A stretch of DNA of 64,000 bases, from assembly GCA_031382385.1 (NCBI GenBank), contig JANMYS010000061.1, forward strand, positions 2,403-66,402, in the 5' to 3' direction. The stretch is from Gemmatimonadota bacterium (GTDB lineage: Bacteria > Gemmatimonadota > Gemmatimonadetes > Gemmatimonadales > GWC2-71-9). Both the position numbers and the translations under genes were made by a program. The notes under the pieces were generated by a model. That model was given only the letters and a program-made list of their open reading frames with translations, was not told the DNA's origin and made no database searches. Positions 42,819 through 61,914 of this stretch are shown piece after piece (position 1 is the stretch's first letter; each line of letters starts with the position of its first letter).

Positions 42819-45380
42819 ATGTCTGAACGCAGCGAACGTCTCGTGCTGCCCGTCCTGCCGTTGCGGGAAGTTGTGCTCTTTCCCGGAGTGACCGCCCCGA
42901 TCGGGGCCGGTCGTCCCGGAACCCTGCGTGCGATCGAAGCGGCGCTCAATACGCCCGACCGCCTGATCTTCGCCGTTTCGCAGCGGGAAAACGTCGAGCA
43001 GGTGACCGGCGAAACCCTCTACACGATCGGTACCATCGCCCGCATCGGCCAGATGCAGCGCGGGCTGGCCGGCATGCAGCTGCTGCTTCACGGCGAGCGG
43101 CGCGGCATCGCGATGCACATCGGTGAAAAGAACGGGTACATGGAGGCGATCATCCGCGAGGCCGAGGAACTGGCCCCGCTCAATAGCGAGGATCCCGCCT
43201 TCGTCGGCCTGTACAAGGAAGCCCGGGCCCGGGCCGGCGAGCTGGGCCAGAAGTCCGGCTTGCCCGAGGAGGTCGTGCAGCAGGTGCTCGCGGGCGTCGC
43301 CGATCCGGGCCGTTTCGCGGATCTGGTGGCCGGCTACCTCGACATCCTTCCGCCGCAGCGCCAGGCGCTGCTGGAGACGCTCTCGGTCGAGGAGCGGCTG
43401 CGCCGGGTTCTGGTCCACGTGCAGCGCCAGATCTCGGTGCTGGACGCACAAGAGGACATCAAGTCGCAGGTGCAGGAAGAGCTGGGCGAACGCCAGCGCG
43501 AGATGTTCCTGCGCGAGCAGCTCAAGCAGATCCGGCGGGAGTTGGGTGAGGATGACGAACGCGGAGATCTCGAGGAACTGCGCGAGAAGCTCGATGCCCT
43601 CGATCTCCCGGCCGAGGCCCGGAAGGAATCCGAACGCGAGTTCGGCCGGCTGGAGCGCATCAGCCGGGAGTCGATGGAGTCGCAGGTGATCCGCACCTAC
43701 CTCGACACCATCACGGAACTGCCGTGGAACCTGCGCAGCGAGGAGTCACTGGATCTCGTCAAGGCCAGCGCCATCCTCGATCAGGATCACTATGCCCTGG
43801 GCGACGTGAAGGACCGGGTGCTCGAGTTCCTGGCGGTGCGCCAGCTCAAGGAACAGGTGGCCAGGCAGGAGGAAGACGGTCAGGGGGTCGGACGGTCGGA
43901 TGGTCAGGTGGACCCGGAGCGGGTTGAAGCGACGAGCGTGGAGAACGCGCCCGATGCCCCGACCGTCCGACCGTCTGACCGCCCGACCGCCACAGAGGGC
44001 AACAGCGACGAAAAGGCCAGCAAGGGGCCGATCCTCCTCTTCGTCGGACCGCCGGGTGTCGGCAAGACCTCCGTGGCCAAGTCGATCGCCCGCGCGATGG
44101 GGCGGAAGTACGTCCGCATCTCGCTCGGCGGCGCGCGCGATGAAGCCGATGTCCGCGGCCACCGGCGCACCTACGTCGGCGCCATGCCCGGCCGCATCCT
44201 GCACGCGATGAAACAGGCCGGCACCAAGAACCCGGTCTTCCTCCTCGATGAGGTGGACAAGCTGGGCGTCTCCTTCCAGGGCGACCCGGCCAGCGCCCTG
44301 CTGGAAGTGCTCGACCCGGCCCAGAACGACAGCTTCGTCGATCATTACCTCGGTGTACCGTTCGACCTGAGCGAGGTGCTGTTCATCTGCACCGCGAATT
44401 TCATTCAGAATATCCCGGGTCCGCTGCTGGACCGGATGGAAGTCGTGGAGTTTGCCGGCTACACCGAGCGAGAGAAGCTGATGATCGCGCGGAAGTATCT
44501 CGTTCCGCGCCAGCAGGTGGAGCACGCCCTGAGCTCGGACCAGATCAACATCACAGACGAGGCCGTCGCCGAGGTCATCTCCAGGTACACCCGCGAGGCA
44601 GGAGTCCGGCAGCTCGAACGCGAGATCGGAAAGCTCTCCCGCAAGGTGGCGCGCAAGATCGCCGCGAAGGAGACGCCGCAGGTGGAAGTCACGGCGGAGA
44701 TGGTCGACGATCTGCTCGGCCGGCCCAAGGTGCATCCCGAACGCGCCGCCCGGGAAGACCAGATCGGGGTGGCGACGGGGATGTACTACACCCCGGTTGG
44801 CGGCGACATCATGTTCGTCGAGGCGTCCACGATGCGGGGCAAGGGCGAGCTGGTGCTGACCGGCCAGCTGGGCGACGTGATGAAGGAATCGGCGCGCGCC
44901 GCCTGGACCTACGCCCGGTCACATGCAGCGGGGCTCCACATCCGGGAAGAGACCTTTGCGGAGCGGGATGCCCACGTCCACGTCCCCGCCGGCGCCATCC
45001 CGAAGGATGGACCATCCGCGGGCGTCACGATGGCGACGGCAATCATCTCCGCCCTCTCCGGCCGTCCGGTCCGAAACGACATCGCGATGACCGGCGAGAT
45101 CACCCTGCGCGGCGAGGTCCTGCCGATCGGGGGGCTGAAGGAAAAGGTGCTTGGGGCGGTGCGCGCGGGCATCACCCGGATCGTGATCCCCAAGAAGAAC
45201 GAGCCCGATCTCGAGGATCTGCCGGAAGAAATCAGGAAGCTGATCGAGGTGTATCCGGCCGAGAATCTCGGCCAGGTACTCGCGCTTACGCTGCGCGGTG
45301 CCAGCTTCCGGGATGGCCGGCTGCTCTTCGGCGATCAGGTGCCGGGCGATGTGGCGCCGTTGCAGGCGTACCATCACTGA
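42819..45380 (+). CDS. lon: ATP-dependent Lon protease (LonA)
   Basis: LON N-domain, Walker A GPPGVGKTS, Walker B FLLDEVDK, and protease Ser-Lys dyad region PKDGPSAGVTM. It carries an extra ~50-aa insert before the AAA+ module. Confidence 0.95.
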   Translation: MSERSERLVLPVLPLREVVLFPGVTAPIGAGRPGTLRAIEAALNTPDRLIFAVSQRENVEQVTGETLYTIGTIARIGQMQRGLAGMQLLLHGERRGIAMHIGEKNGYMEAIIREAEELAPLNSEDPAFVGLYKEARARAGELGQKSGLPEEVVQQVLAGVADPGRFADLVAGYLDILPPQRQALLETLSVEERLRRVLVHVQRQISVLDAQEDIKSQVQEELGERQREMFLREQLKQIRRELGEDDERGDLEELREKLDALDLPAEARKESEREFGRLERISRESMESQVIRTYLDTITELPWNLRSEESLDLVKASAILDQDHYALGDVKDRVLEFLAVRQLKEQVARQEEDGQGVGRSDGQVDPERVEATSVENAPDAPTVRPSDRPTATEGNSDEKASKGPILLFVGPPGVGKTSVAKSIARAMGRKYVRISLGGARDEADVRGHRRTYVGAMPGRILHAMKQAGTKNPVFLLDEVDKLGVSFQGDPASALLEVLDPAQNDSFVDHYLGVPFDLSEVLFICTANFIQNIPGPLLDRMEVVEFAGYTEREKLMIARKYLVPRQQVEHALSSDQINITDEAVAEVISRYTREAGVRQLEREIGKLSRKVARKIAAKETPQVEVTAEMVDDLLGRPKVHPERAAREDQIGVATGMYYTPVGGDIMFVEASTMRGKGELVLTGQLGDVMKESARAAWTYARSHAAGLHIREETFAERDAHVHVPAGAIPKDGPSAGVTMATAIISALSGRPVRNDIAMTGEITLRGEVLPIGGLKEKVLGAVRAGITRIVIPKKNEPDLEDLPEEIRKLIEVYPAENLGQVLALTLRGASFRDGRLLFGDQVPGDVAPLQAYHH
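43878..43991. repeat. inverted 8-nt arrays inside lon CDS
   Basis: GGTCAGGGGGTCGGACGGTCGGATGGTCAGGTG (43878-43910) and CCGACCGTCCGACCGTCTGACCGCCCGACCGCC (43959-43991). Confidence 0.9.
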
Positions 45381-56796: not shown

Positions 56797-58188
56797 CTAT
56801 GGTCGGTGCTTCACCTTGATCTCGGTCCGGCGGTTGATGGTCCGGGCAACTTCTGTGGTGTCCGCCACAAGCAGCGGTTGGGCGCCCCTTCCGATGGAGG
56901 TGATCCGGCTCACACTGATACCCTGGCTGACCAGGTAGTCCCTGACCGCGTCGGACCGGCGCTGGGACAGTTTGAGGTTGTCTCCGGGTACGAGCCGGTC
57001 GTGGGCAAAGCCGGTCACTTCGGCGATCGTGGTGGAGTCGGTCAGCATCACGGTCGCGACGGAGTCGAGGATCGTCGTCGCCTCGCTGGACATGCTGGAT
57101 CCGCGCAGTTGCCAGGAGCTGCCGGGCACCACCCAGCTCTGTTCGGCGGGAAGGGTGTCCGCCGGGAGCGGCTCCGGCACGGTGGGACACCCCGTCTGGT
57201 CGACGGCGGTATCGCGCCGGCTCTCCGGGCACTGATCGAGACCGTCGAGGACGCCGTCGGCATCGGTGTCGCTGGGACAGCCGAGGGCATCCACGGTGGC
57301 CCCGGCCGGGGTCAGCGGGCAGCGATCGAGGCCCTCGAAGACTCCGTCGGAATCGCTGTCCGCCGGGCAGCCCGCACCGTCCACCAGCGCGCCGGCGGGC
57401 GTCCCCGGGCAGCGGTCGAGGCCATCGAGCAGTCCGTCGCCATCGGTATCATGGCTGCAGCCGGCGGCATCGACCGCGGCCCCCTCGACCGTGTTGGGGC
57501 ACCGGTCGAGGCCATCGGGCACGCCATCGGCGTCCCGGTCCGTGGGGCAGCCGCGGGCGTCGACCAGGGCGCCCAGGCGGGTATCGGGGCAGGCATCGGA
57601 GCGATCGTAGATGCCGTCGCCATCGCGGTCGGTAAGTGGCGTGCTGCCCACCATCAGGCTCACGCCACCCTGCAGGATGAAATTGGTGAACTTGAGGGTG
57701 GTCAGACTGCGCTGTAGCGTCCCCTCGTAGCGCATGAAGAGGGTCGGCTTGATGGCAATGCGCACACCCGCTCCGCCCTGCAGCACATCGGCGGAGCCGC
57801 AGGGGCCGGCGCCCGGCAGCGAGACGGACGGACAGGTGCCGTAGCTCAGGTGAGCATATCCGCCCTTGAGGATCACGAAGGTGCTGCGACCGACCGCGAT
57901 ATTGCCCAGCGCCCAGAGGCCGAGGGTGTTGGTGCTGACCGCTTTCTTGAGGGAGGTATTCGTCTTCGGCTTGGCGAGGGTGCCTTCGGCCTCCACCGAG
58001 AAGGGGCCGTAGATCCAGTACCCCAGGCGGAGGGCGCCACCGAAGGCGGGGGAGAGGTCGGTCTTGCTGTCGTAGGTGTGATACCCGCCGGCCCCGCTCA
58101 GTTCGAGCTTGTAGAGCCGCTGCGCGGCCAGGGAGGTGCTGCCGAGGGTCGTCAGGGTGAGGCAGGGGAGGAGCAGGCGGCGCAACAT
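56797..58188 (-). CDS. OmpA-family outer-membrane protein with thrombospondin type-3 (Ca-binding) repeats
   Basis: N-terminal beta-barrel-like region, six repeats of D.DGDG..D..D.CP, and a C-terminal OmpA domain (RRSDAVRDYL, NRRTEI). Confidence 0.85.
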   Translation of the reverse strand: MLRRLLLPCLTLTTLGSTSLAAQRLYKLELSGAGGYHTYDSKTDLSPAFGGALRLGYWIYGPFSVEAEGTLAKPKTNTSLKKAVSTNTLGLWALGNIAVGRSTFVILKGGYAHLSYGTCPSVSLPGAGPCGSADVLQGGAGVRIAIKPTLFMRYEGTLQRSLTTLKFTNFILQGGVSLMVGSTPLTDRDGDGIYDRSDACPDTRLGALVDARGCPTDRDADGVPDGLDRCPNTVEGAAVDAAGCSHDTDGDGLLDGLDRCPGTPAGALVDGAGCPADSDSDGVFEGLDRCPLTPAGATVDALGCPSDTDADGVLDGLDQCPESRRDTAVDQTGCPTVPEPLPADTLPAEQSWVVPGSSWQLRGSSMSSEATTILDSVATVMLTDSTTIAEVTGFAHDRLVPGDNLKLSQRRSDAVRDYLVSQGISVSRITSIGRGAQPLLVADTTEVARTINRRTEIKVKHRP

Positions 58189-58367
58189 GGCGACTCGGGC
58201 AGCAGGAGGAAGAAGGAAGGTGGATTCTGCCCCCCGGTCACGGAGGCCGCAAGGGGCGCGCAGGGAAGGCGGCGGACTACAGGGCGCTGGCGGGAGCAGT
58301 TAGCTTGGGATCAGTGGCTCGTTTTCCCTTGTCTCAGGCTGTTCCTTTTCCCTGCCGATACTCCATC

Positions 58368-58598
58368 ATGCATTTCACGATCACCTACTGCGTCGTCTGA
58401 AACTACGAACCACGGGCGGCCGGTCTGGCCGCCGAGATCAAACGGGCGTATCCCGCCGCGGAGGTGCGCCTGGTGCAATCCTCCGGCGGGGCCTTCGAGG
58501 TCACCATGAATGAGGATGTCGTCTTTTCCAAGAAGACCCTCGGCCGGCATGCCCAGCCCGGGGAGATCATGGGGCTGATTCAGGGGAGGCGCGCGTGA
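58368..58598 (+). CDS. SelW/Rdx-family selenoprotein candidate (in-frame TGA at 58398-58400 read as Sec)
   Basis: My translation is MHFTITYCVV-U-NYEPRAAGLAAEIKRAYPAAEVRLVQSSGGAFEVTMNEDVVFSKKTLGRHAQPGEIMGLIQGRRA. It has a CxxU redox motif in the canonical position of the Rdx fold. A hairpin lies downstream of the TGA. Confidence 0.7.
58414..58434 (+). promoter_or_regulatory. bacterial SECIS-like stem-loop
   Basis: GGCGGCC (58415-58421) pairs with GGCCGCC (58427-58433) in a 7 bp all-GC stem. The apical loop is GGUCU, and it begins 21 nt after the UGA. Confidence 0.55.
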
Positions 58599-58607
58599 AG
58601 TCGATTG

Positions 58608-58640
58608 CCGGTTCCCTGTTCCCGGTTCTCCATTCCCTGC
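58608..58640. repeat. degenerate CCGGTTCC-type array
   Basis: GCCGGTTCCCTGTTCCCGGTTCTCCATTCCCTGC, between the selenoprotein candidate and pfkA. Confidence 0.8.
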
Positions 58641-58650
58641 GGGCTGTCGC

Positions 58651-59730
58651 ATGCGCATAGCGATCTCCACCGGTGGCGGGGACGCGCCGGGACTCAACGC
58701 CGTGATCCGCGCCATCGTCCTCTCCGCGCACACCCGCGGGTGGCAGACCTACGGTATTCGACGGGGATACGGAGGATTGCTGGGGAACGATGGAATCCAG
58801 AGCCTCACGCCCCAGTCGGTCCGCGGCATCACCCACCTCGGCGGGACGATCCTCGGCACCACCAATCGCGGCAACCCGTTCCGCTGGGCGTCGAAGGATG
58901 CGTCTGGCCGGGAGGTGGAGGTCGACCGGTCGGATGATCTGATCGCGGCGTTCAATGCGAGCGGGTTCGACGCGATGATTCCCATCGGCGGGGATGGCAG
59001 CCTCAAGATCGCCTACGACCTCGGACTCAAGGGGTTGCCGGTCGTGGGAGTTCCCAAGACCATCGACAACGACGTCTGCGGCACGCTGTCCACGTTCGGG
59101 TTCGATACGGCCGTCAGCACCGCCACCGAGGCGATCGACAAGCTGCACTCCACCACCGAGAGCCATGAGCGTGTCATGGTGGTCGAACTGATGGGTCGCG
59201 ACGCGGGGTGGATCGCGCTGCACAGCGGGATCTCCGCCAGCGCCGATGTGATTCTGCTGCCGGAGATTCCCTTCGATATCGCGAAGGTGTGCGAAAAGGT
59301 CATGGAGCGGGAGCGCGATGGCCGGCATTTCAGTGTGGTCGTCGTGGCCGAGGGAGCCAAGCCGATCGGCGGAGAGGCCAGCATGGTCGAGCGCCGCTCG
59401 ACCGGCACCGTGGACCGGCTCGGCGGGATCGCGTCGCTGGTCGCGAAGACCATCACCGAGCGGACCGGCAAGGAAACCCGAAGCCTCGTGCTCGGTCACC
59501 TGCAGCGCGGTGGATCGCCCACGACTTTCGACCGACTGCTGGCGCTGCGCTTCGGTGCCGCCGCGGTCCGCGCGGTCGCGGATCATGCGTTCGGCGTGAT
59601 GGTGGGATTCGCACCGCCCGAGATCATCCGGGTGCCGCTGGAGCAGGTCATCGGACGCACCAAGCATGTGCCGCTCAATTGCGATACCATCCTGACGGCG
59701 CGGGGGCTGGGAATCAGTCTGGGGGACTAG
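58651..59730 (+). CDS. pfkA: 6-phosphofructokinase
   Basis: GGGDAPGLNAVIR, IGGDGS, PKTIDNDV and MGRDAG. Confidence 0.9.
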   Translation: MRIAISTGGGDAPGLNAVIRAIVLSAHTRGWQTYGIRRGYGGLLGNDGIQSLTPQSVRGITHLGGTILGTTNRGNPFRWASKDASGREVEVDRSDDLIAAFNASGFDAMIPIGGDGSLKIAYDLGLKGLPVVGVPKTIDNDVCGTLSTFGFDTAVSTATEAIDKLHSTTESHERVMVVELMGRDAGWIALHSGISASADVILLPEIPFDIAKVCEKVMERERDGRHFSVVVVAEGAKPIGGEASMVERRSTGTVDRLGGIASLVAKTITERTGKETRSLVLGHLQRGGSPTTFDRLLALRFGAAAVRAVADHAFGVMVGFAPPEIIRVPLEQVIGRTKHVPLNCDTILTARGLGISLGD

Positions 59731-59734
59731 GAGG

Positions 59735-59853
59735 GCCGTCAGCCGTCAGCTGTCAGCCATCAGCCATCAGCCATCAGCCATCAGCCGTCAGCCGTTGGCT
59801 TGTCGGGTACCGCCTCGCGCCTAGCGCCACCCTCCTCACTCCCACCTCTCCTC
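59735..59853. repeat. about 9 units CAGCCGT/CAGCTGT/CAGCCAT, then CCGCCTCGCGCCTAGCGCCAC box and CT-rich leader
   Basis: Read directly. It ends at ATG 59854. Confidence 0.95.
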
Positions 59854-61914
59854 ATGACCCGCCCATCCTATCCCGCTTCCCGCACCGACCCGATCATCGA
59901 CACGCTCCACGGCGTCCCGGTGCCCGATCCTTACCGCTGGCTGGAGGATGCCGAGAGCGACGAGGTACGAGCGTGGACGAGGGCGCAGAATGGGCTGACG
60001 GAGGCCTACCTCGGGGCGGTGGCGGGGCGCGGCGCGATTCGCGACCGGCTGGCGCAGCTGCTCACGATCGGGGCGCTGAGTACGCCAACACCAGCGCGGG
60101 GACGCTATTTCTACCAGCGGCGGGATGGCAGCCAGAACCAGCCCGTCTTGTATGCTCGCGACGGTGTCGCTGGCGAGGATCGGGTGCTGCTCGATCCCAA
60201 CGCGCTCAGTCCCGAGGGGACGACGGCGCTCGACTGGTCGCACCCCAGCGAGGATGGCGCGCTGCTGGCCTACGGCCTCTCCGACGATGGGAGCGAGGAG
60301 AGTGTGCTGCGGGTCATGGACGTGGCCAGGGGCCACGATCTTGGTGAGGCGATCCCCGGGACGCGGGCATGTGATCTGGCCTGGCTGCCCGATAACAGCG
60401 CGTTCTATTACACGCGCTATCCCGCGGCGGGAACCGTGCCCGAGGGTGAAGAGCAATACCATCGTTCGGTCTACCTCCACCGGCTCGGAACCGATGCCAG
60501 CGCGGATGCGCTCGTGTTCAGGCCGACGGAAAAGGAGCACTGGCCTGGCGTGGGGCTTTCGCCTGACGGCCGGTGGCTGATCGTCACGGTCGCCCGCACC
60601 TTTGATCAGACGGATCTCTACCTGCAGGAGCGTGCGGGGGGCGGACCGCTCGTGCCGGTGGTACAAAACCTTCCGTTTTCGTTCGACGGGCAGGTGGTCG
60701 GTGACCGCCTGTACATCCGGACCAACCTCGAGGCGCCTAACTACCGGCTCCTTGTCACGGACCCGCGCTCGCCGGGGCAGGCCGGCTGGCACGAGCTCGT
60801 GGCGACGCGGGCCGATGCGGTGCTCGACGGGGTGATGATCACCCGGGCCCGGCTGGTGCTGAGTTATCTGGAGCGCGCCACGTCCCGGCTGCAGCTGGCC
60901 GAGCTGGATGGCACCAACCGGGCGGAGCTGGAGCTGCCCACCATCGGCAGCGTCTTCGGCTGGGGGGCCGAACCGGATGGGATGGAGCTGTTCTACGGTT
61001 TCTCGTCCTACACCGTGCCGCCAAGCGTCTATCGCGTCGACCTCGGCACAGGAGTCACCACGCTGTGGCGCAGGGTGGAGGCCGACATTCGGCCGGAACA
61101 GTTCGCGGTGCGGCAGGTGACTTACCAGTCCACGGACGGTACCCCCATCACGATGTTCCTGGTACACCGGGCCGACCTCCGACGCGACGGTTCCGCGCCG
61201 GCGTATCTCACCGGATACGGCGGGTTCAACATCAGCATGACGCCCGGCTTCTCCCGTTCCCTGCTGGCATGGCTCGAGCAGGGCGGGCTCGTGGCGGTGC
61301 CGAACCTCCGGGGCGGCGGCGAGTATGGCGAGTCCTGGCACCAGGGTGGCATGCTGGGCTCAAAACAGAACACCTTCGACGACTTCATCGCCGCCGCCGA
61401 GTATCTGATCCGTGAGCGGTATACCACCACCGACAGGCTGGCGATTGCCGGCGGCTCGAACGGCGGGTTGTTGATGGGCGCGGTGCTCACCCAGCGCCCC
61501 GAGCTGTTCCGTGCCGTCATCATTCAGGTACCGCTGCTCGACATGCTGCGGTATCACCAGTTCCGGATCGCGCGGTTGTGGATTCCGGAGTACGGATCCT
61601 CGGAGGATGCGGCGCAGTTCGCCTGGCTCGCGGCCTATTCACCCTATCATCACGTCCAGCCCGGGACGCCCTATCCCGCGGTGCTGCTGGCGACCGCTGA
61701 AAGCGACTCGCGGGTCGACCCACTTCACGCCCGAAAGATGGCGGCCCGGCTGCAGGCGGCCACCGCATCGGAGCACCCGATCCTGCTGCGCCTCGAAGAG
61801 CGAGCGGGGCATGGCGCGGGCAAGCCGATGTCCAAGGTTCTGGACGAACTGGTGGACAGCTGGAGCTTCGTGGCCGCGGAGCTGGGTATTGAGTGGCGGG
61901 GGATCAGGCAGTAG
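59854..61914 (+). CDS. prolyl oligopeptidase (S9A)
   Basis: Start MTRPSYP, DPYRWLED, beta-propeller region and catalytic GGSNGGLL. Confidence 0.9.
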   Translation: MTRPSYPASRTDPIIDTLHGVPVPDPYRWLEDAESDEVRAWTRAQNGLTEAYLGAVAGRGAIRDRLAQLLTIGALSTPTPARGRYFYQRRDGSQNQPVLYARDGVAGEDRVLLDPNALSPEGTTALDWSHPSEDGALLAYGLSDDGSEESVLRVMDVARGHDLGEAIPGTRACDLAWLPDNSAFYYTRYPAAGTVPEGEEQYHRSVYLHRLGTDASADALVFRPTEKEHWPGVGLSPDGRWLIVTVARTFDQTDLYLQERAGGGPLVPVVQNLPFSFDGQVVGDRLYIRTNLEAPNYRLLVTDPRSPGQAGWHELVATRADAVLDGVMITRARLVLSYLERATSRLQLAELDGTNRAELELPTIGSVFGWGAEPDGMELFYGFSSYTVPPSVYRVDLGTGVTTLWRRVEADIRPEQFAVRQVTYQSTDGTPITMFLVHRADLRRDGSAPAYLTGYGGFNISMTPGFSRSLLAWLEQGGLVAVPNLRGGGEYGESWHQGGMLGSKQNTFDDFIAAAEYLIRERYTTTDRLAIAGGSNGGLLMGAVLTQRPELFRAVIIQVPLLDMLRYHQFRIARLWIPEYGSSEDAAQFAWLAAYSPYHHVQPGTPYPAVLLATAESDSRVDPLHARKMAARLQAATASEHPILLRLEERAGHGAGKPMSKVLDELVDSWSFVAAELGIEWRGIRQ

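Follow-up and report, generated by a model that had tools for sequence, protein, structure and literature searches.

In a 64,000-nt stretch of DNA from a Gemmatimonadota bacterium (GenBank assembly GCA_031382385.1, contig JANMYS010000061.1, positions 2,403 to 66,402 of the forward strand; hereafter the window, 67.8% GC), a short plus-strand gene lies between a divergently oriented gene for an OmpA-family outer-membrane protein with thrombospondin-type repeats and a phosphofructokinase gene (pfk), which is followed by a prolyl oligopeptidase gene. The short gene has 76 codons and encodes a SelW-like protein of the Rdx family. Its conceptual product is MHFTITYCVV*NYEPRAAGLAAEIKRAYPAAEVRLVQSSGGAFEVTMNEDVVFSKKTLGRHAQPGEIMGLIQGRRA*, in which the internal stop is a TGA at codon 11 and 65 further sense codons separate this TGA from the stop TGA at 58596-58598. 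The original prediction, made from the letters of the window alone, had read the gene in the same way, from an ATG at 58368 and split by the TGA at 58398-58400, and our translation agrees. We consider it very likely that this is a functional selenoprotein gene, in which the internal UGA is decoded as selenocysteine (Sec) with the help of a SelB-type selenocysteine insertion sequence (SECIS) hairpin that lies directly downstream of it. The features of the locus are collected in Table 1.

Table 1. Features of the selW-like locus, in window coordinates (MFE, minimum free energy; ORF, open reading frame).
Feature	Position	Strand	Basis
SelW-like (Rdx family) gene, complete, putative selenoprotein with Sec-UGA at codon 11	58368..58598	+	translation, Pfam and NCBIfam matches, ortholog frame
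Redox motif Cys8-Val-Val-Sec11 (CxxU)	58389..58400	+	Cys8 and TGA codon 11 both in 80/80 orthologs; aligned to CTQC of Atu0228
In-frame UGA, probably read as Sec	58398..58400	+	TGA in the window and in 80/80 orthologs
Putative bacterial SECIS hairpin, 7-bp stem 58415-58421/58427-58433, loop GGUCU 58422-58426	58415..58433	+	MFE fold, RNAalifold, covariation
Phosphofructokinase gene (pfk), context, possibly co-transcribed	58651..59730	+	Pfam PFK, E=4.5e-102
OmpA-family outer-membrane protein gene	56797..58188	-	
Prolyl oligopeptidase gene	59800..61914	+	
ORF of 140 aa, antisense to the selW-like gene	58311..58733	-	
ORF of 219 aa, other frame, overlapping the selW-like gene	57850..58509	+	

The GC content at third codon positions (GC3) of the selW-like gene was 0.90 upstream of the internal TGA and 0.83 downstream of it, and neighbouring real genes had values of 0.83-0.86. 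TGA is the stop codon of 20 of the 45 genes predicted in the window, the selW-like gene included, and therefore the codon is not globally reassigned. Neither a sigma-70 consensus promoter nor an obvious Shine-Dalgarno sequence was found before the ATG, and the 5' region of the gene showed no conservation across the phylum.

We searched hidden Markov models (HMMs) with the 76-residue translation after replacing U by C. The protein matched Pfam Rdx (PF10262) with E=2e-19 and 70 bits (cutoff 22.6) over profile positions 3-73 of 74, and it also scored above the curated cutoffs of the NCBIfam model NF041051, “SelT/SelW/SelH family (seleno)protein” (98.6 bits, cutoff 88), and of TIGR02174, CXXU_selWTH (58.1 bits, cutoff 34.2). 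With these full-length matches and its CxxU motif, the protein is a member of the Rdx/SelW-like family, as its sequence layout had led the original prediction to propose together with the Rdx search. The best sequence match in the PDB was Atu0228 from Agrobacterium (2fa8, E=9e-8), and in this alignment Cys8 and the TGA codon fall on the two cysteines of CTQC, the TGA on the second. Its claimed place at the second redox residue is thus borne out. For the fold we relied on an AlphaFold2 model of a Cys-form ortholog, P0001, which is 69% identical to the window protein (pLDDT 86.8, the predicted local distance difference test score). The model shows strand beta1 (residues 2-8), helix alpha1 (14-27), three further strands, and a C-terminal helix, with the CxxC/U motif at the end of beta1 in the loop before alpha1. 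Foldseek searches with the model gave template-modelling (TM) scores of 0.91 to 2fa8 and 0.88-0.91 to 2obk, 3dex, and 2p0g, followed by mouse SelW (2npb, 0.75) and 2ljk (0.78), with thioredoxins further down. By way of P0001, the window protein is therefore predicted to have the thioredoxin-like beta-alpha-beta-beta-beta-alpha fold of the Rdx family, and by analogy with the family its product would act as a thiol/selenol oxidoreductase. We know of no established physiological substrate for the bacterial Rdx members.

We next compared the gene with its orthologs, taking the best 80 of 352 relatives from a scan of species-representative genomes. These come from 80 species-level genomes, nearly all of them Gemmatimonadota, Gemmatimonadales, or Gemmatimonadaceae metagenome-assembled genomes (MAGs), and their proteins are 58-89% identical to that of the window. 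Codon 11 was TGA in all 80. Cys8 was likewise present in 80/80, the start codon was ATG in 79 and GTG in one, and in every ortholog the next stop was reached at codon 72-90 from the start. Diversity at codon positions 1, 2, and 3 was 0.149, 0.118, and 0.412 in codons 2-10, and 0.22, 0.145, and 0.517 in codons 23-68; this pattern demonstrates purifying selection on the frame on both sides of the TGA. Two of the orthologs come from MAGs labelled “uncultured delta proteobacterium” (CAWEFJ010000004.1) and “uncultured bacterium” (CBFHAJ010000101.1). Their TGA and SECIS sequence are identical to those of Gemmatimonadota loci, and the taxonomic labels of these two MAGs may be wrong or imprecise.

A single window cannot separate a Sec-encoding UGA from a nonsense mutation, and the original prediction had named a truncated pseudogene as an alternative, in which a Cys-form Rdx gene suffered a TGC-to-TGA mutation and only a 10-residue peptide is made. 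The TGT at the Sec codon of P0001 could be taken to favour such a history. The alignment of orthologous loci leaves this alternative with a probability close to nil: the TGA stands in 80/80 orthologs at the identities given above, the frame downstream of it is intact and shows a coding substitution pattern, and an inactivating mutation would not persist across a phylum. Thus, the constant TGA together with purifying selection on the conserved downstream protein excludes a lineage-specific nonsense mutation.

P0001 itself is encoded at positions 564-800 of a Logan contig (SRR21285592_455701; locus L084) and was the only full-length relative in the protein collection that we searched, in which close relatives were represented by fragments and this one Cys variant, and none of them by a full-length Sec form. 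The in-frame UGA is hence paired with a conserved Cys of homologues, both in 2fa8 and in the TGT of P0001. At the Sec codon L084 differs by a single A-to-T change, and its hairpin is intact (GCCGCC-GGTCT-GGCGGC). Either the TGT arose by Sec-to-Cys conversion very recently, or it is a mistake of sequencing or assembly in this one contig of 1.2 kb. With one nucleotide changed and the hairpin fully intact, P0001 was dropped as a control for decay of the hairpin.

Public gene calls of the relatives (P0002-P0011) lack the N terminus, being fragments of 41-60 aa that start after the TGA; some of them are named “selenoprotein W-related protein” or “SelT/SelW/SelH family protein”, and CxxU is absent from all of them. 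Taken at face value, these entries describe two products, a leader peptide that ends at the TGA and a separately initiated C-terminal fragment, and the window does offer an in-frame GTG at 58464 for such an initiation. However, the internal start is not conserved: downstream of the TGA, the first in-frame ATG, GTG, or TTG occurs anywhere from codon 24 to codon 50, and one ortholog has none. Furthermore, the protein sequence of codons 12-23 (NYEPRAAGLAAE), all of them ahead of these starts, is 96-100% conserved, and the fragment would be without strand beta1 and the redox motif. The scattered starts and the conservation of codons 12-23 exclude independent translation of the C-terminal part, and we regard the two-product interpretation as very improbable.

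The longest uninterrupted ORF over the locus is on the minus strand (140 aa), and 69 of 79 orthologs have the corresponding antisense frame open, so that the real gene might be this ORF and the plus-strand reading a coincidence. This can be set aside almost entirely. The minus-strand ORF has no Pfam match, its GC contents at the three codon positions (0.709/0.546/0.645) are without the GC3 excess of real genes, and it overlaps the start of pfk. Pairwise identity averages 0.50 for its translation and 0.75 for the sense protein, and its frame is broken in 10 orthologs. It is the exact codon-antisense frame of the selW-like gene, where a stop arises only opposite the sense codons TTA, CTA, or TCA; as these are rare at 68% GC, chance alone should leave long antisense frames open. 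The original prediction had called this ORF an antisense artefact, with which we concur, and the only ORF listed there, which does not hold, as a second one of 219 aa overlaps the gene on the plus strand in another frame and is mostly antisense of the OmpA-family gene. As an observation apart, the minus-strand ORF illustrates how long shadow ORFs arise from high-GC codon bias.

The second element of the locus is the hairpin. The MFE fold of 58398-58460 contained a 7-bp all-G/C stem, set off from the UGA by 14 nt, with the apical loop GGUCU, set off from it by 21 nt, and so reproduced the stem, loop, and both distances that had been proposed. The hairpin alone, of 19 nt, had a predicted energy of -14.9 kcal/mol. 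Among the 80 orthologs and the window sequence, 81 sequences in all, the alignment had no indels, the spacing of 21 nt was identical throughout, and the loop was GGUCU in 80 and GGGCU in one. This uniformity extends to codon choice. Ala18 was GCC in 80/80 orthologs, Gly19 GGT in 79/80, Leu20 CTG in 80/80, and Ala21 GCG in 76/80; GGT makes up 12.7% of the Gly codons in window genes, and other invariant Gly codons of the same ortholog sequences were GGT in only 9-19/80. Third-position diversity was 0.135 in codons 17-22 versus 0.40-0.52 elsewhere in the gene.

We then analyzed the stem for base pairing across the alignment. RNAalifold, run on the 81 sequences, returned exactly the 7-bp stem and nothing else within 63 nt. 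Two stem pairs fall on third codon positions, and both covary with compensatory changes. The pair of alignment columns 21-33 was CG in 61 sequences, UG in 16, GC in 3, and GU in 1, and was unpaired in none; the window carries the swapped G-C version. The pair 18-36 was GC in 61, CG in 6, AU in 3, and GU/UG in 2, and was unpaired in 9. Overall, 98.2% of stem cells were paired, compared to 16-60% when the 3' partners were slid by 1-3 columns, and 14 stem cells were doubly changed. None of 500 shuffles reached the observed covariation score. A conserved structure after the UGA, on which the original prediction had made its reading depend, is thus present, with covariation at two pairs. These comparisons go far beyond chance and show that the hairpin is under selection at the RNA level.

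The sequence just downstream of the UGA is also conserved. The codon that follows it is AAC or AAT (Asn) in 96% of orthologs (58398-58403 in the window, alignment columns 1-6), the base 3' of the UGA is A in 81/81 sequences, and positions 4-14 after the UGA are likewise highly conserved. This context could reflect a requirement of Sec insertion beyond the hairpin, or protein constraint alone.

Bacterial SECIS elements follow a consensus in which an upper stem with 4-16 bp carries a 3-9 nt loop, at least one of the first two loop bases is a G, usually followed by G or U, 16-37 nt separate the loop from the UGA, and the MFE is at most -7.5 kcal/mol (PMC13188914, a 2026 review). The window element lies within all of these ranges, with its 5-nt loop GGUCU, 7-bp stem, 21-nt spacing, and -14.9 kcal/mol, and the spacing, which the original prediction had placed within the bacterial range, is therefore confirmed. 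The loop had also been likened to that of the E. coli fdhF SECIS, and when we checked this on the E. coli K-12 sequence the string GGUCUG was common to both. In fdhF the UGA is codon 140 and is followed after 18 nt by the apical loop GGUC, compared to 21 nt in the window; in both cases the element lies inside the coding sequence, directly 3' of the UGA, and its loop begins with GGUC. The helices differ. That of fdhF is long and interrupted, extending over ~40 nt back to the UGA, and carries a 4-nt loop closed by A-U, whereas the window element has one uninterrupted 7-bp all-G/C helix with a 5-nt loop and is without a predicted conserved lower stem. SelB touches the G and U of the fdhF loop with its C-terminal domain, and similar contacts would explain the invariant loop seen here.

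Several observations weigh against decoding of the UGA as Sec with the help of a SECIS. SelA, SelB, and SelD, searched with E. coli queries by tblastn, had no match in the window or in the 1.2 Mb of the 80 ortholog loci (±10 kb around each ortholog), and tRNA-Sec was not found in either by ARAGORN, nor by Rfam in the window. A second selenoprotein gene was not found in the window or the loci either, with scans that were crude. The folding energy of the element is ordinary for its GC content (z = -0.57 for 63 nt, equalled by 55 of 200 shuffles), and that of a 281-nt fold was not significant (z = +0.79). Three of the seven stem pairs are invariant and hence uninformative on structure. The shuffle control of the covariation score overstates significance, as the 81 sequences are related. 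Finally, Rfam at gathering thresholds gave no match to the element in the window. Because of the ordinary folding energy the hairpin alone is no evidence, and support comes from the comparative tests, of which the slid-partner and within-gene codon controls are free of the weakness that kinship brings. Since no Sec machinery was found in the window or the loci, the argument for Sec decoding is an evolutionary one.

The searches behind these negatives also produced candidates that we rejected. Matches to the element that Rfam gave at permissive thresholds were at chance level and on the wrong strand. A search of a protein database with E. coli SelA returned only Enterobacteriaceae among the best 120 of 8000 candidates. 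The selenoprotein scans used coding potential flanking a TGA, CxxU/UxxC motifs, and the SECIS signature; on the known SelW genes one early method recovered 8/81 and the SECIS-signature scan 70/81, and other candidates were off-frame or antisense junk only. The only other in-frame TGA of the window with weakly coding-like sequence on both sides, 43746-43748 (-), has flanks of 390 and 342 codons; its translation resembles the antisense of the large gene 42819-45380 (+), and it is probably an artefact. ARAGORN further called an 88-nt tRNA-Val (gac) in one ortholog locus (L009, 9456-9543, minus strand), ~460 nt upstream of the selW-like gene; it lacks support from the Rfam tRNA models, and part of the OmpA-family gene was probably miscalled here.

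The lack of Sec machinery in the window and loci bears on one further alternative, that the UGA is recoded without selenium, as Cys or Trp through a near-cognate tRNA or a suppressor, with the hairpin serving as a generic stimulator of read-through or pausing. As the Cys variant with its intact hairpin shows, this position tolerates Cys. However, the UGA occupies precisely the Cys/Sec position of a family that is defined by CxxU and has curated models named for it, and the loop and the spacing agree with the consensus of SelB-type SECIS elements and with the loop of E. coli fdhF. Were Cys the product, moreover, many of the 80 lineages would have exchanged TGA for TGC or TGT, the cheaper codons. 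The family has 427 Sec forms compared to 56 Cys forms in ocean metagenomes (PMC2398784). We judge recoding without selenium improbable, although less so than the two-product or antisense interpretations.

Decoding as Sec remains the reading that we favour. We know of no other explanation for a UGA that is kept in 80/80 orthologs at the Cys/Sec site and is followed by a hairpin of the SelB-binding type that is under selection as RNA. Translation would begin at ATG 58368 and would not terminate at the UGA, where the 7-bp G/C hairpin is predicted to fold 14 nt further on. Its GGUCU loop would recruit SelB, the elongation factor specific for Sec, loaded with Sec-tRNA(Sec); Sec would be inserted, and translation would run on to the stop at 58596-58598. 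The product would be a small redox protein with a thioredoxin fold, of the SelW-like/Rdx type and with the active site Cys8-x-x-Sec11. That SelB and tRNA-Sec decode this UGA is suggested by sequence comparison, as are binding of the hairpin by SelB and hairpin-dependent read-through, for which we rely on the conservation at the RNA level.

The protein resembles the bacterial SelW-like selenoproteins in its HMM families, CxxU motif, length of about 75 residues, and thioredoxin-like fold, and in belonging to a group in which Sec forms predominate over Cys forms. Nothing essential differs; the motif here is C-V-V-U, and the lineage is Gemmatimonadota. It shares with mammalian SELENOW and MIEN1 the Rdx fold and the CxxU/CxxC position (TM scores above; E=8e-7 to 2ljk), but sequence identity to these is only about 26-27%. 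Eukaryotic SelW-type proteins also use a SECIS of an entirely different type, in the 3' untranslated region. Catalogues of bacterial selenoproteins have included CxxU SelW-like proteins ever since the Sargasso Sea and Global Ocean Sampling analyses, in the latter of which SelW-like was the most abundant prokaryotic selenoprotein family (PMC2398784), and comparative genomics has suggested that these proteins had Sec in their original form (PMC1794560).

In its surroundings, the selW-like gene is followed by pfk 52 nt after its stop, with no terminator-like site between the two. Among the orthologous loci (L002-L081), 50 have a downstream pfk on the same strand and 37 have the OmpA-family gene upstream. 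The selW-like gene and pfk may therefore form a conserved transcription unit, although we know of no functional link between them. No selenium-related genes were found near the selW-like gene.

The selW-like gene is a further member of a well-known and common bacterial selenoprotein family, and it leaves the knowledge of selenoproteins and of recoding unchanged. What is new is modest, and is taxonomic and practical in kind: the gene is conserved across Gemmatimonadota and has an unusually uniform SECIS. The searched literature held nothing specific on a Gemmatimonadota selenoproteome or on selenium use in this phylum; the Mariotti 2015 supplement names Gemmatimonas aurantiaca T-27 as one of its analysed genomes. 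Standard gene calling misses the gene and reports its relatives as fragments without the catalytic CxxU, an annotation that calls for correction, since functional and pangenome analyses of Gemmatimonadota otherwise lose a conserved redox protein together with evidence of selenium use. The 81-sequence alignment, with no indels, a nearly invariant loop, and two covarying pairs, could serve as a training or benchmark set for predictors of bacterial SECIS elements.

The Sec reading also predicts that these genomes carry selA, selB, selC, and selD, with a SelB that recognises the GGUCU loop as E. coli SelB does. Gemmatimonadota are mostly known as aerobic soil organisms. A wider interpretation, which we put forward tentatively and think rather less likely than its opposite, is that Sec decoding is an ancestral, phylum-wide, and essentially undescribed trait of Gemmatimonadota. 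The SelW-like protein may then be the conserved, and possibly the only, selenoprotein of the phylum, and its SECIS may be a minimal one whose loop, identical to that of E. coli fdhF, has been frozen across the phylum. In such a setting, the habitual placement of the gene directly upstream of pfk hints at a redox link to glycolytic control.

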